From Candidatus Uhrbacteria bacterium (lineage in GTDB: Bacteria; Patescibacteriota; Patescibacteriia; UBA9934; GWF2-40-263), in NCBI GenBank assembly GCA_903843045.1, contig CAIMOJ010000027.1:1-54255 (forward strand): a DNA stretch of 54,255 nt. Direction: 5' to 3'. Each line of letters opens with the position of its first letter. Position 1 is the stretch's first letter. The notes below the pieces were generated by a model that was given only the letters and a program-made list of their open reading frames with translations, was not told the DNA's origin and did no database searches. The translations under genes and the position numbers were made by a program. This document shows, one piece after another, positions 2,779-36,233 of this stretch.

Positions 2779-4125
2779 ATGGCCGAAGTGAAACCCGACA
2801 TTGAGACGTTCGCCAAGATCAAGGTGGTTGGCATTGGTGGGGGCGGAGGCGCGGCGGTGAACCGCATGATCTCGGACAAGATCAAGGGCGTCGAGTTTAT
2901 CGTCGTGAACACGGACGTGCAGGCGCTCCATCAGAATCTCGCGCCGAACAAGATTCCGATCGGAAAGACGGTAACGCGCGGCCTTGGCGCCGGCATGAAC
3001 CCGGAAGTCGGCCGACACGCGGCAGAGGAAAGCGTGAACGAGATTCGCACGGTGCTCAACGGCGCGGACATGGTGTTCGTGACGTGCGGGCTCGGAGGCG
3101 GAACCGGAACGGGGGCAACGCCGGAGGTGGCGAAGGTCGCGAAGGAAATCGGCGCGCTTACCATCGCCGTGGTCACGAAGCCATTCTCGTTCGAGGGCGC
3201 CCAGCGCCGACGCATCGCCGAGGAAGGGTATCAGCAGCTTCTCCAGTACGTGGACACGATCATCACCATCCCGAACGACCGCGTGCTCCAGATCATCGAC
3301 AAGAAGACGTCGCTCCTCGACGCGTTCAAGGTGGTGGACGACGTGCTTCGCCAGGGCGTGCAGGGAATCTCCGAGCTCATCACCATCCCGGGCCTCATCA
3401 ACGTCGACTTCGCCGACGTGAAGGCCATCATGCAGAACTCCGGCTCGGCGCTCATGGGCATCGGCCGCGCCACCGGCGAGAACCGCGCCGTGGAGGCTGC
3501 CAAGCAGGCGATCGCTTCGCCGCTCCTCGAGGTTGCCATCGACGGCGCCAAGGGGATCCTGTTCACGATCACGGGAGGAACCGACCTCGGCATGCACGAG
3601 GTCGCGGAAGCCGCCAAGATCATCACGGGCTCGGCCGACGAGGACGCGCGCGTCATCTTCGGCGCCAACATCGACGAGAGCATGGGCGAGGAGGTGCGCA
3701 TTACCGTCGTCGCGACCGGCTTCGACAGCCGTGACCGACGGATGGCCGCCCCCGGAGTGGTTGAGATCCCGGCCCAGAACACCTGGACCCCGGCCCCGCT
3801 CCGCGTCCGCGAGGACGACCAGGCCCGCCGTCAGCAGAAGGCCCCGGTGAGCTATCCGCAGCCACAGCCGACCCCGATGCGCCCGATGATGCCGCCGCCG
3901 ATGCCGGTCCAGCAGCCACAGCCGGCATACGTCCAGCCGTCGTACGCGCTGCCGACCATGAGCAGCCCGATCCAGCAGGGCAGCGCCCCGAGCTTCCAGG
4001 CGCGCCCGGCCCCGACGAGCTCCCAGTACATGCCGCCTCCGCCGCAGCCGATGGCGCAGCAGAAGCAGCAGACCGAGGAAGAGGAGATCGAGATCCCGGC
4101 GTTTATCCGAAAGAAGATGATGTAG
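2779..4125 (+). CDS. ftsZ: Cell division GTPase FtsZ with long Pro/Gln-rich C-terminal linker
   Basis: GGGTGTG tubulin signature, NVDFADV T7 loop, C-terminal EIPAFIRKK peptide. Confidence 0.98.
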
Positions 4126-4651: not shown

Positions 4652-5911
4652 ATGGATGCAAAGCGACCATCGGGAATTCATCAGACGATCCTCGTCGTCG
4701 CCGTCGCGCTTGCCGCCGTGATCGGCTCGGTTTCCGGCGCGATCGGGGCCGTTCTTATGACGGGCGCCATCAACGGGTCGGACATCATGGCGCGAATGTC
4801 CGGAACCTCAAGGGCTTCCGTTGCGACCGACCGGCGCATCGTCCAGATGATCGAGGAGGAGAGCGCGAGTATCTCCGTGGTGGATACCGTGGCCCCGTCG
4901 GTGGTCAGCGTCATCATTAAGAAGCCGTGGGGCGCGGTACGGGCCGATGAGGCGAACCAGTCAAACTCCGGTTTTTTCGACCCGCTCAACGCGCCGCCCC
5001 TTCCGGACATCCCCCCAAACCAGGATCCGAACGAGCTCGTCGAGATCGGCGGCGGCTCCGGGTTCTTCATGTCCTCCGACGGCTACATCGTTACGAACCG
5101 GCACGTGGTGAGCGATGACGGCGCAACGTACACGGTCGTGACGAACGATGGCGTCGAGCTTCCCGCGACGGTCGTGGCGCGGGACGCGTTCCTTGATATC
5201 GCCGTGCTCGACGTGGCGGGAGACGGATATCCGGTTGCGACGCTTGGCGATTCCGACAAGATTCGCATCGGCTCGACGGTGATCGCCATCGGCAACACCC
5301 TTTCCGAGTATCGCAATACCGTCACGAAGGGCGTCATCTCCGGAATCAACCGCAGCGTGACCGCCGGCGACGACTACGGCTCCGACGAGGTGATCGACCG
5401 CGCGATCCAGACCGACGCGGCGATCAACCCGGGCAACTCGGGCGGGCCGCTCATCGACCTGCTCGGCGAGGTCATCGGCATCAACTCGGCCGTCAGCTAC
5501 GACGGCCAGTCCATCGGGTTCGCGATCCCGATCAACGACGTCAAGAAGATCGTGGACGACATCGGGAAGTTCGGACGCATCGTTCGCCCGTGGCTCGGCG
5601 TGCGCTATCTCGAGGTCGACAAGCAGCTGGCGTCGGACGAGAGCCTGTCCGTGGACTATGGCGTCTACGTCACGTATGGAAACGATCCGACCACCGAGCC
5701 GGCCGTCTCTCCGGGTTCTCCGGCGGAAAAGGCGGGTATCAGGGAGGGGGACGTGATCCTGTCCGTGAACGGTCAGAAGCTTACCGACCATCAGACGCTC
5801 GGCTCCGTCATCAGCCAGTACAATCCCGGAGACACGGTTTCGCTGAAGGTTGCGCGGGGCGAGGAGGCATTCGACCTGAGCGTGGCGCTTGAAGAATTAA
5901 AGGCACAATAG
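4652..5911 (+). CDS. htrA: HtrA/DegP-like S1C serine protease with PDZ domain
   Basis: Intact triad context [27 protein letters not shown]; N-terminal TM; C-terminal PDZ. Confidence 0.93.
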
Positions 5912-33791: not shown

Positions 33792-34442
33792 ATGGCAACC
33801 ATCAACTATACCTCCATTCTTTTCGACCGGGCCAGGACCATCGGCGCGTTCTGCGTCGTCGGGCTCGTCGTCGCGCTGCTCGTCTGCTTCGTGCAGCCGC
33901 TCAAGTATTCGTCCACCGTCCGGCTCCTCGTGATGCAGGACCTCGGCTCGGCCACCGACGCGTACACGGCCAGCCGTTCCGAGGAGCGCATCGCCGAGAA
34001 CCTGTCGACGATCGTGTATACGACGACCTTCTTCGACGAGGTGATGAAGGCCGGCTTTTCCATTCAGGAGCGATACTTCCCAACCAAGGATTACAAGAAG
34101 CGCCAGGAGTGGGCGAAGACCGTCGACGCCACGATCGCGCGCGGGTCGGGACTCATGACCATCACGGCCTACCACCAGGACGTCTCGCAGGCCGAGCAGA
34201 TTGCCCGCGCCGTGGCGTCCGTGCTCACCGCGAAGGCGAGCGAGTACACGTCGGGCGGGGGAGTGCAGGTAAAGCTCATCGACGCGCCGTTGAACTCGCG
34301 GTATCCCGTGAAGCCGAATATTCTGGCAAACGCGGTATCCGGGGTTGTCCTGGGCGGACTGGTCGGAATCGGATTCGTGCTCATGCAATATGAGAAAATC
34401 CGCCGGCGCCACCAATTCGTACATGAGGATAACATTGCTTGA
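33792..34442 (+). CDS. Wzz/YveK-like polysaccharide chain-length determinant
   Basis: Two terminal TM helices, PLKYSSTVRLLV, PVKPNILANAVSGVVLGGLVGI; TGaTATACT-N8-ATG. Confidence 0.75.
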   Translation: MATINYTSILFDRARTIGAFCVVGLVVALLVCFVQPLKYSSTVRLLVMQDLGSATDAYTASRSEERIAENLSTIVYTTTFFDEVMKAGFSIQERYFPTKDYKKRQEWAKTVDATIARGSGLMTITAYHQDVSQAEQIARAVASVLTAKASEYTSGGGVQVKLIDAPLNSRYPVKPNILANAVSGVVLGGLVGIGFVLMQYEKIRRRHQFVHEDNIA

Positions 34443-34467
34443 CGAAAACAGGCGTAAATGTTAGCAT
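34439..34467 (+). promoter_or_regulatory. Promoter firing into the 34476-34564 hairpin
   Basis: TTGACG-N17-TAGCAT with TG extension; the -35 contains the Wzz TGA stop. Confidence 0.6.
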
Positions 34468-34475
34468 AATGGCAC

Positions 34476-34564
34476 AAAAAGCCCATTCAGAGGGTCGGGA
34501 CCAGCGTTCGTGATGACTCCTCCTTATCGCGCTCGCAAGGCCCGGCTCTCTGAGTGGGCTTTTT
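34476..34564 (+). ncRNA. Candidate ~90-nt sRNA with anti-SD-like loop
   Basis: Promoter upstream; 17-bp plus 7-bp stem; loop contains CTCCTCCTTA; ends in T5. Confidence 0.5.
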
Positions 34565-34585
34565 GCGTTATTTCACCCAAACCCC

Positions 34586-34614
34586 TTGACACTTTCCTCC
34601 AAATGTGATATTCT
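34586..34614 (+). promoter_or_regulatory. Promoter of MopE-motif gene 1
   Basis: TTGACA-N17-TATTCT with TG extension; about 220-nt structured leader follows. Confidence 0.75.
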
Positions 34615-34838
34615 CCGACCTTGCTAATCGTTCTTTCCCGTTGCCTCGATTGGCCCGACGTCTCCCTGGCACACCTCCTCCTTGTGCCAGGATCGGACGC
34701 CGGACCAATCGACGCCGCGGGGAATCCTCTTCCGCACGTCAACAAACCCCGGTAACACGGGGTGCAGCGACGCGCGGGGATGGTCCTCGCACGTCAAACA
34801 CCCCGGTGCAAGCCGGAACCCCAGCCAGGAGATCAACC

Positions 34839-36233
34839 ATGACCCAGACCCTCAAGACCAACGGAGGCTCCATGAGCCAGATTTCTTTCCTCGCCCTCGT
34901 GGGCGTTCTCGTCAGCACCCCGGCGTTCGCCGTCACCCCCTGCGCCCCGGTCGCGCCCTGCAAGTCGGCCCCGGTCGTCGAGCCCCTCAAGGACTGCGGG
35001 GCCGCGAACGACGAGCTCTGCACCGAGGCGACGGACGTCGACAAGGACGCCTACTACAGCGACAGCAAGTCGCGCCTCGACTGCGACGACACCAAGGCGA
35101 CCGTCCACCCGACCGCGACCAGCGTGATCGGCGACGGCCTCGACAACGACTGCAGCGGCGACACCGACGACGAGGAGCTCGCCGCGGCGCTCATCGCGGC
35201 CGGCGGCGAAACCAGCCCCGCGGGCATCGCGCTCGCGAAGGACATCGACTCGTGCTGGAACAGCACGGTCGTCGGCGCGGAGGACGCGTACTGGTCCAAG
35301 GGGTCCAAGAAGCCCTGGACCTGCAACGGCCTGGCCGACGGCCTCTCGTTCGAGCGTGGAAAGGGTGTCCTGACCGAGACCCAGACCCACGACCTCGAGT
35401 CCGCCCGGCGCATCGCCGGCGACCGCGCGGTGGCCGCCAAGGCGAAGGCCGAGGCCGAAGCCGTGATCGCGGACGCGAAGGCGACGATGAAGGCCGACGT
35501 GGACGCCGACAAGGCGTACTTCGCGGAGCTGATCTCGCAGAGCGAGGCGACCGTTGTCGAGCTCAGCGCGAAGATCGACGCGTACGATGCCCGGCTCGCC
35601 CAGTTCGAGCTCGACGCGAAGCACGCGGCCTCCCTCCAGAAGGGGATCGACGCGCGGCAGAACGATGCCATCGGCGCGAACACCGCCGACATCGGCGACC
35701 TGCAGCGGCGTGGCGTCATCTTCGAGATCGGCGCCGGCGCCGGTTTCCTCGCCCAGCGCTCGCTGGTCGATGCGGACGGCACGGTCTACCGCAGCGGGAT
35801 GGTCGGCTTCGGCAACGTCGTCGCCAGCATCGGGTACGGGATCCCGAACGCCAGCCTCACCCTCGACCTGAGCTTCGGCGAAGGGTCGACGGGGAGCCTC
35901 GGCGGGACGGTCCCCGACACGGTCGCCTCGGCGGCGGTGGTCGGCCAGTACCGGCACGGCGACATGGCCATCGGTCCGATGCTCACGCTCAGCAGCAGCG
36001 CCACCGGCAACCCGCTGGACTCGGGCGTGAGCGGCTGGGGCCCGGGCATCGGTGCCGCGGCCTCCTGGTTCGCCCCGAACGAGAAGGGGCTGCGGATCGA
36101 GGTCAAGACCCACCTCACGGTCGGTCTCGAGAACTTCGGCACGGACACCAGCCTGACCACCAAGTACTGGGACTCCGGTCTCATGGGCGAGGGCGGCGTC
36201 ACCGTTCTCGTCGGTGGCGGTCCCCGCAAGTAG
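34839..36233 (+). CDS. Secreted protein: one MopE-type metal-binding motif, coiled coil, C-terminal beta-barrel-like domain
   Basis: DCDDTKATVHPTATSVIGDGLDNDCSG; signal peptide ending TPAFA; two in-frame SD-ATG starts (34839, 34872). Confidence 0.75.
   Translation: MTQTLKTNGGSMSQISFLALVGVLVSTPAFAVTPCAPVAPCKSAPVVEPLKDCGAANDELCTEATDVDKDAYYSDSKSRLDCDDTKATVHPTATSVIGDGLDNDCSGDTDDEELAAALIAAGGETSPAGIALAKDIDSCWNSTVVGAEDAYWSKGSKKPWTCNGLADGLSFERGKGVLTETQTHDLESARRIAGDRAVAAKAKAEAEAVIADAKATMKADVDADKAYFAELISQSEATVVELSAKIDAYDARLAQFELDAKHAASLQKGIDARQNDAIGANTADIGDLQRRGVIFEIGAGAGFLAQRSLVDADGTVYRSGMVGFGNVVASIGYGIPNASLTLDLSFGEGSTGSLGGTVPDTVASAAVVGQYRHGDMAIGPMLTLSSSATGNPLDSGVSGWGPGIGAAASWFAPNEKGLRIEVKTHLTVGLENFGTDTSLTTKYWDSGLMGEGGVTVLVGGGPRK

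Follow-up and report, generated by a model that had tools for sequence, protein, structure and literature searches.

A candidate small RNA family with a conserved anti-Shine-Dalgarno-like loop in Uhrbacteria and its putative paralogue in the leader of a neighbouring surface-protein gene

Positions 34474-34564 of a contig of Candidatus Uhrbacteria (assembly GCA_903843045.1, contig CAIMOJ010000027.1; the whole contig of 54,255 nt, C27 in our numbering, is referred to as the window) are well supported, on the grounds of sequence, as a stand-alone and independently transcribed small RNA (sRNA) gene, the product of which would show an unpaired and conserved loop similar to the anti-Shine-Dalgarno (anti-SD) sequence of 16S rRNA. 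The analysed genome has a size of 1.28 Mb and is 96% complete. An earlier note, made from the letters of the window alone, had interpreted the site as a candidate sRNA displaying an anti-SD loop or, alternatively, as an attenuator of the downstream gene. Of this interpretation, the independently transcribed sRNA with its conserved anti-SD-like loop is well supported, and the attenuator was rejected. Beyond that note, the sRNA element was found to be order-wide, and an apparently older paralogue was detected inside the leader of the neighbouring gene.

The small RNA and its conservation

The promoter, the hairpin and the T5 run described in the earlier note were recovered where it had placed them by inspection of the sequence, a promoter scan and folding (Table 1). 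The -35 hexamer TTGACG occupies positions 34439-34444 and the -10 hexamer TAGCAT positions 34462-34467, with a spacing of 17 nt. The hairpin covers positions 34475-34565, and its minimum free energy (MFE) fold has -63.1 kcal/mol and makes up 80% of the ensemble, compared with -28.9 +/- 3.0 kcal/mol for 200 shuffled sequences (z = -11.3). It consists of 25 basal pairs, including five A-U pairs between an A-run and the U-run, followed by a bulged A, two short helices of 2 and 3 bp and an apical stem of 8 bp; the previously described stems of 17 and 7 bp are thus only an approximation of this fold. The 7-nt apical loop in the MFE fold is exactly CUCCUCC (34517-34523), in agreement with the earlier claim that the central CU-rich segment forms an unpaired anti-SD-like loop. 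CUCCUCC is complementary to (A)AGGAGGAG, and the loop is complementary to the strong Shine-Dalgarno (SD) sequences AGGAGGAG, GGAGG and AGGAG and resembles the anti-SD tail of 16S rRNA. The sequence CTCCTCCTT occurs three times in the window, at an expectation of 0.35. The G+C-rich stem followed by T5 has the form of an intrinsic terminator, and of a bidirectional one, but the sRNA's own terminator does not account for the conserved loop.

The -35 hexamer of the sRNA encloses the TGA stop codon (34440-34442) of the upstream gene, which encodes a Wzz-like protein. Transcripts of this gene that read through would likewise stop at the sRNA hairpin, so that a form of the sRNA derived from the 3' untranslated region (UTR) of the Wzz-like mRNA is possible. 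Concerning coding potential, a 31-codon ATG frame through the loop has not been retained in other genera, and the sequence variation of the sRNA tracks base-pairing, not codons.

BLAST searches against relatives detected the element in 7 of the 8 other genomes of the genus. A covariance model of the sRNA, named R1, scored 108.7 bits at the window copy and matched 50 of 73 genomes in the family (22 of 29 genera) and 94 of 162 genomes in the order (37 of 55 genera, five families), with one copy per genome; these counts are lower bounds because the search filters were strict. Outside the order, R1 gave just two weak matches among approximately 290 genomes of the class, both of which are a related leader-type hairpin. 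Within the analysed genome, a loop-and-stem scan together with R1 and the model of the leader hairpin described below (R2) returned just the sRNA and the leader hairpin. A 15-base core pattern was present in 77 viral contigs, which we consider chance matches because none of them fits R1, and the pattern of the leader hairpin was present in none, so that these searches gave no indication of carriage by phages or plasmids.

In an alignment of 26 homologues from many genera, 22 of the 33 base pairs showed compensatory changes, and 95% of the cells were paired. The covariation score of the structure was 0.592, compared with 0.243 for shuffled alignments, none of which reached the observed value in 500 trials, and it dropped to 0.09-0.14 when the structure was slid by 1-3 columns. 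The apical stem has been rewritten in almost every genus while the loop stays fixed: nCUCCUCCU (CUCCUCCU) is invariant and unpaired in all 26 aligned sequences. In the earlier note, pairing of the CU-rich segment in structure probing, together with its lack of conservation among homologues, had been named as what would refute the proposal; the segment is unpaired in the single and the consensus folds and invariant in the homologues. Invariant or nearly so are also the internal-loop nucleotides C-A-G-C-G and G-C-C-A-G.

The strand on which the RNA is encoded can be deduced from promoters and from the pattern of substitutions. Of 29 loci, 27 have a promoter of the type TTGAC[GCA]-N16-18-TAnnnT in the 130 nt that precede the CUCCUCC strand, and none has one on the antisense side, at a background of 0.043 per 130 nt. 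The alignment contains 91 G-U cells versus 13 A-C cells, which favours the CUCCUCC strand, and 95.0% of the cells are paired on the sense strand versus 85.9% on the antisense strand. On the reverse strand of the window copy, R1 scored 52 bits versus 108.7. The kept gene order around the sRNA is a PDZ protein gene, the Wzz-like gene, the sRNA and the MopE-motif secreted-protein gene. Linkage of the sRNA to the Wzz-like gene is seen in 21 of 27 loci, and MopE-type orthologues flank the sRNA in 14. In this genus, the sRNA is codirectional with its flanking genes, whereas in most other genera it is inverted, being convergent with the Wzz-like gene and divergent from the MopE gene. The sense-side promoter is present in both orientations of the sRNA relative to its neighbours. 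Because promoters occur on the sense side only despite these orientation flips, and because of the bias of G-U over A-C cells, the CUCCUCC strand can be identified as the functional RNA, and we infer that it is expressed.

The second hairpin in the MopE-gene leader

The product of the gene downstream of the sRNA is a secreted protein in which a signal peptide and a single Cu-binding_MopE motif are followed by a coiled coil and a Gly-rich tail. The promoter predicted to drive this gene starts 21 bases past the T-run of the sRNA, and its elements CTTGACA and TGnTAnnnT are kept in all 8 genomes of the genus and also in other genera. The 5' limit of the leader is approximate because the transcription start was deduced from the -10 box. 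Within the leader lies a second hairpin (hairpin 2) with the 9-nt loop CCUCCUCCU at positions 34674-34682; the sequence CACCUCCU at positions 34671-34678 is identical to the 3' tail of 16S rRNA. Among 19 aligned sequences of hairpin 2, 14 of its 22 pairs showed compensatory changes.

R2, the covariance model of hairpin 2, was searched against 301 genomes sampled evenly from the class and gave single copies in 38 of them, with matches spanning approximately 15 families beyond the order. The hairpin always has a consensus promoter of the extended -10 type upstream. In some lineages (loci L075, L077, L082 and L088), the hairpin is directly trailed by a T-run, and it would therefore be a free small RNA there, whereas in other lineages it stands at the head of leaders for secreted or membrane proteins. 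Since R2 also cross-matches R1 loci in other families, the order-specific sRNA is best read as a paralogue that would have been derived from an older, class-wide leader hairpin module.

The leaders of MopE genes in other genera can be considerably longer than the one in the window. At loci L019, L022, L030, L032, L033, L036 and L039, they comprise 350-450 nt and contain additional conserved hairpins beyond hairpin 2, e.g. CATGGTCG...CGACCATG, or GCTGA-(GUUCUAUACAA loop)-TCAGCC followed by TAGGTCAAAAAG, as well as stems of the type CCCCGnnGGGG. No Rfam match was obtained for these large structured 5' UTRs. In another genome of the same genus (G005, locus L007:1640-1810), an insertion of approximately 150 nt separates the MopE promoter from hairpin 2; it holds GTATACGGATATAC and then GAAGGAGGAC, and a similar arrangement, GTATACGGATATACGCC-GGAGGAGGAC, is found in contig C59 of our genome at about 3150-3200. 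In another family of the class (loci L078-L081 and L085), an R2-type hairpin precedes, at a distance of 60-90 nt, genes whose products combine an RRM-like N-terminus with Gly-X-Y repeats of the collagen type, a transmembrane segment and, at the C-terminus, a coiled coil. No homologue of these proteins was found in the genome analysed here.

Table 1. Positions and supporting evidence of the features predicted at the sRNA locus of the window.
Feature	Position	Strand	Evidence
Upstream neighbour, Wzz/GNVR-like chain-length-determinant protein gene	33792..34442	+	ORF (open reading frame) list; Pfam PF02706 Wzz 25.9 bits, PF13807 GNVR
Putative sRNA promoter TTGACG-N17-TAGCAT, TG before -10	34439..34467	+	promoter scan
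Candidate small RNA, ~91 nt, long covarying hairpin with U5 end	about 34474..34564	+	fold, model R1, covariation
Apical loop ACUCCUCCUU	34516..34525	+	unpaired in MFE and consensus fold
T5 run, terminator tail	34560..34564	+	sequence; T-run after hairpin in nearly all homologues
Second promoter TTGACA-N17-TATTCT, extended -10, predicted to drive the MopE-gene mRNA	34586..34614	+	promoter scan, 10/12 matches
Structured 5' leader of the MopE-motif gene, ~225 nt	34615..34838	+	fold -106.8 kcal/mol, z = -5.8
Leader hairpin (hairpin 2), putative sRNA paralogue	34644..34718	+	fold; alignment; R2 76.5 bits
Shine-Dalgarno AGGAG, 7 nt before ATG at 34839	34827..34831	+	sequence
Downstream neighbour, MopE-motif secreted protein gene	34839..36233	+	Pfam PF11617, 35.6 bits

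Possible targets and alternative functions

The 16S rRNA of this organism ends with GGAUCACCUCCUUUCU, so that CCUCC, the presence of which the earlier note had proposed to check, is kept. Among 1198 ORF calls, 233 have GGAGG or AGGAG ahead of an in-frame start, compared with 76 and 33 in out-of-frame controls; a strong SD is carried by a minority of the genes, about 15%, which includes MopE genes. The earlier statement that accessory genes in the window are SD-led and core genes are not was roughly right: no 5-mer SD precedes the genes for FtsA, an HtrA-like protease, pyruvate kinase, HlyD and MacB, whereas MopE-motif genes and the gene for a PA14/laminin-G surface protein have one. Besides the neighbour of the sRNA, 4 of 6 MopE-type ORFs genome-wide have an SD. 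In other genomes, the MopE-type gene beside the sRNA has its start 5-12 nt behind AGGAG or GGAGG in 12 of the 13 loci with a callable start; the remaining one has GGAGA.

We estimate at about an even chance that the ~91-nt RNA is a stand-alone regulator, the loop of which pairs with the SDs of the SD-led minority of mRNAs in competition with the 30S subunit. The sRNA would be made from its own sigma-70-type promoter and finished at its own hairpin and U5. A rigid stem, which may change in sequence provided that it stays paired, would present the invariant 8-9-nt loop nCUCCUCCU, which would pair with the ribosome-binding sites of SD-led mRNAs, including those of the adjacent MopE-motif surface-protein genes. 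By competing with the 30S subunit, this pairing would lower translation, and the adjacent MopE mRNA would be the likeliest conserved partner. Neither Hfq nor CsrA was detected in this genome by tblastn with E. coli queries. Pairing of the loop with SDs and repression as its effect might make the sRNA the global regulator proposed in the earlier note, which would selectively silence SD-led accessory genes.

Several observations weigh against a function as an SD-pairing repressor. When duplexes were predicted for 14 orthologous MopE leaders, no extended site recurred consistently, and the SD region was among the top sites in just approximately 4 of them. The loop offers just 5-8 bp to ordinary SDs, and an 8-nt loop by itself is unable to discriminate among SD-led mRNAs. 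The perfect complements AAGGAGGAG in the genome lie mostly within coding sequence, as Lys-Glu-Glu codons, and a genome-wide inspection of AAGGAGGAG, AGGAGGAG and GGAGGAG sites, which were mostly coding or part of a palindromic repeat, revealed no clear regulon. Base-pairing by the apical loop leaves the invariant internal-loop nucleotides CAGCG ... GCCAG unexplained, which hints at contact with a protein. Furthermore, the MopE mRNA has the same loop in cis, so that a purely repressive copy in trans looks redundant; this arrangement fits competition for a shared partner equally well.

The main rival explanation, which we consider possible but on the whole unlikely, is that the RNA mimics the 16S tail as a decoy for a protein. 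The loop, perhaps together with the internal loop, would bind this protein. Regulation would take place at the hairpin in the MopE leader, from which the free sRNA would titrate the protein away, as CsrB does with CsrA. Candidate partners are bS21, bS1, the KH domain of Era or a KhpA/B-type protein. The presence of the same loop on two scaffolds side by side, one free and one in an mRNA leader, corresponds to the layout of a sponge or competitor, and the identity of CACCUCCU in hairpin 2 with the 16S tail as well as the internal-loop nucleotides left unexplained by seed pairing are in favour of a decoy. A precedent exists in OLE RNA, in which bS21 binds a mimic of the SD-ASD (anti-SD) duplex (PMC12054373), but the bS21 site in OLE is a duplex mimic and not a single-stranded loop. 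Both bS1 and bS21 are present in the genome, the latter encoded on contig C28 behind the long SD-like stretch GAAAGGAAGGUGA; nothing ties bS21 to the sRNA, though, and no gene for an RNA-binding protein is linked to the sRNA locus. As for the RRM-like N-termini encoded behind R2 in one other family, they are part of membrane proteins with collagen repeats, which, as mentioned above, have no counterpart here.

A further and rather doubtful possibility is that the CPR (Candidate Phyla Radiation) bacteria of this class, with neither SRP (signal recognition particle) nor Hfq or CsrA and with SDs on just a minority of their genes, keep a dedicated free-standing anti-SD module, a hairpin with the 16S tail, of which the copies in leaders of envelope-protein mRNAs and the free sRNA copies compete for SDs or for a protein that binds the 16S tail, e.g. 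bS21. In this way, the module would gate the SD-dependent translation of surface proteins.

It is improbable that the sRNA is a regulator dedicated to its own locus, acting either on the adjacent MopE mRNA, by competing with or reinforcing the hairpin present there in cis at the SD, or on the Wzz-like mRNA at its 3' end. Such a function would be in line with the linkage to Wzz-like and MopE-type genes, which persists despite the inversion of the sRNA, with the back-to-back position of the sRNA and MopE promoters in the inverted arrangement, and with the retention of the AGGAG/GGAGG SD of the MopE-type gene in nearly all these loci. In most genera, the sRNA is moreover convergent with the Wzz-like mRNA and complementary to its 3' end, but this overlap exists in just one of the two arrangements. 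The complementarity to the MopE leader ends at the SD, with no extended pairing, and the flanking genes differ in one group of genera (L020, L023, L024, L026 and L027).

Even less can be said for an element that is a terminator only, an unusually long bidirectional one composed of A-run, GC-rich hairpin and T-run with an incidental loop, and we regard the likelihood of this as very low. The symmetry of A5 and T5, the location right after the Wzz stop codon, the match of R1 to the reverse strand and the convergent orientation in most genera, in which the hairpin could terminate the Wzz-like gene, would all suit a terminator. However, a terminator has no need for an invariant 8-nt loop, for invariant internal loops or for a 33-pair covarying stem across 37 genera, the promoter goes with the CUCCUCC strand in 27 of 29 loci regardless of the orientation of the neighbours, and the G-U versus A-C counts point to one strand. 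Because of the orientation flips, the sense-only promoters and the strand bias, we regard a mere terminator and an attenuator as excluded for practical purposes.

An attenuator or leader of the downstream gene, which the position of the hairpin 275 nt upstream of the MopE ATG and on the same strand in this genus might suggest, is hardly credible given the conserved promoter that intervenes at 34586-34614 and the opposite strand of the sRNA relative to the MopE gene in most genera. The same applies to a divergent signal recognition particle (SRP, 4.5S) RNA. This idea was raised because no SRP RNA is detectable in these genomes: RF00169 and RF01854 gave no match at E <= 1 in the genome analysed here, and Rfam SRP models scored above the cut-off in 0 of 73 genomes of the family, in which the element is a single-copy hairpin RNA of ~93 nt. 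The sRNA lacks the GNRA tetraloop and the domain IV loops, and the partner protein is missing as well. An Ffh M domain was not found in this genome, where tblastn with E. coli Ffh was also negative; an SRP54-type GTPase (Ffh or FtsY) was detected in 0 of 73 family genomes, and none was convincing among the 301 genomes of the class, single-contig genomes included. A divergent SRP RNA was therefore ruled out, since Ffh and FtsY are absent too. The missing SRP pathway is not a new observation but confirms what has been published for Parcubacteria (PMC4508563).

Some further features of SD use and translation initiation were noticed in this genome. The rpsU gene for bS21 (C28:100-340) has a consensus promoter TTGACA-N17-TATCCT and a GTG start and is preceded by an unusually long SD-like stretch, GAAAGGAAGGTGA, which recalls the SD-dependent autoregulation reported for bS21 in Bacteroidia. 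At least 9 copies of an intergenic repeat of ~45 nt, CGTTTCCCCTCCTCATAGGGAGGAGGGGTCAGGGGTGGTCGTCGCG, are dispersed over the genome (among them C1 ~60-110, C2 ~14640, C4 ~10250, C39 ~9830, C51 ~1700 and 5280, C64 ~17630 and C70 ~1260); its palindromic arms CCCCTCCTC and GAGGAGGGG therefore hold both the sRNA loop sequence and its complement. In the intergenic palindrome TCTCCTCCTTTTCAAGGAGGAG (C38 ~4885-4915), located 61 nt upstream of an ORF of 1414 aa, an anti-SD-like sequence is paired with its complement in a short hairpin on both strands. Some genes are apparently leaderless, their ATG lying 6-8 nt behind a TATAAT-like box (window positions 1366, 10911 and 37779), e.g. tgctataatcccatcactATG ahead of ftsA. 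Genome-wide, a full promoter ends 4-10 nt before the in-frame start of 23 ORFs, compared with 2 and 0 in out-of-frame controls.

Relation to known RNA families and significance

A scan of the window at Rfam 15 gathering scores returned just tmRNA and one tRNA, a permissive Rfam scan of the sRNA gave microRNA-type noise only, and 12 loci from other genera had no Rfam match at E <= 0.01. We did not find a description of small RNAs in Uhrbacteria in the literature that was searched. The sRNA and its paralogous leader element thus represent a genuine and hitherto uncatalogued family, although one of a known functional kind.

CU-rich motifs on variable stems are the working part of the Cuckoo RNAs of Alphaproteobacteria, which present them as anti-SD loops (PMC4615179, PMC10746234). 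The Cuckoo family comprises alpha-r14 (NfeR1/SmelC397, RF02344 ar14) and CcsR1-4/RSs0680 (RF02791). Like the sRNA described here, Cuckoo RNAs combine an ultraconserved CU-rich anti-SD loop (CCUCCUCCC in Cuckoo, CUCCUCCU in the Uhrbacteria sRNA) with stems that vary by compensatory changes and with their own sigma-70 promoters, and they act, as proposed or shown, by pairing with translation-initiation regions (PMC4615179, PMC10746234). Unlike the sRNA, they consist of 2-4 adjacent short hairpins that each carry CCUCCUCCC (PMC4615179), are present several times in a genome, bind Hfq and are confined to Alphaproteobacteria, whereas the Uhrbacteria sRNA is one long hairpin of ~33 bp with one copy per genome, without Hfq, in a host of the Candidate Phyla Radiation (CPR) and without a terminal CCC. 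Rfam scores for these families were obtained with hairpin 2 only and were far from the gathering scores (ar14, 15.2 bits with gathering at 58.8; CcsR1, 11.2 bits with gathering at 65.3). The resemblance to Cuckoo RNAs is an analogy, not homology.

Other bacterial RNAs share parts of this design. In Firmicutes, unpaired C/U-rich loops of RsaE/RoxS, a widely conserved single-copy sRNA, and of hairpins H7, H13 and H14 of RNAIII pair with G-rich SD regions. Their motif is UCCC or CCCC within another architecture, and no sequence or model match to the Uhrbacteria sRNA was found. In cyanobacteria, Yfr1 has a conserved unpaired ACUCCUCACAC and targets porin mRNAs. Yfr1 is likewise a short, near-universal and single-copy sRNA of its lineage, in which nothing but an unpaired CUCCUC-type motif is invariant and which acts on mRNAs for envelope proteins, but the motif is situated between two stem-loops and not in an apical loop, and there is no sequence relationship.

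Hairpin 2 can be compared with the mraW RNA motif (RF01746), a candidate cis-regulator of Actinomycetales that is a 5' leader element as well. It aligned to the full RF01746 model, a long hairpin with an apical stem CCUGGCnC and a C/U-rich loop, with 30.4 bits and E = 7e-5 in a search of 161 nt, against a gathering score of 50. The gene behind hairpin 2 is a MopE-motif gene and not mraW/rsmH, and orthologous hairpins at 12 loci of other genera had no match at E <= 0.01, so this resemblance is probably convergent. A precedent for a mimic that serves as a protein site instead of a base-pairing seed is the OLE RNA mentioned above, a non-ribosomal RNA that also copies the anti-SD region of 16S rRNA. 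OLE is an RNA of ~600 nt in a ribonucleoprotein of Bacillota and contains a duplex mimic, whereas the Uhrbacteria RNA would present a single-stranded loop on a 91-nt hairpin.

The CPR makes up a large share of bacterial diversity. We know of no experimental data on RNA-based regulation in these organisms, which, as far as we are aware, lack the usual RNA chaperones. With the covariance models R1, for an order-wide sRNA, and R2, for a class-wide leader or sRNA module, two RNA families are defined here, neither of which is contained in Rfam 15. For both, covariation is strong, strand and promoter are defined, and the 8-nt motif as well as the genomic partner, an SD-led surface-protein gene, are fixed. 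Whether the RNA pairs with SDs or binds a protein can be tested in vitro or in E. coli, and no culture of the organism is needed for either outcome. If a protein that reads the 16S tail is bound, this would be the second case, after OLE and bS21, of 16S-tail mimicry outside the ribosome. If leader and free copies compete for a shared partner, they would form a layer of translation control that operates by mimicry of the mRNA-recognition element of the ribosome. If anti-SD pairing takes place, these genomes would provide a simple natural system in which a mimic of the ribosome's own recognition sequence gates a small regulon that depends on SDs and probably consists of envelope proteins.

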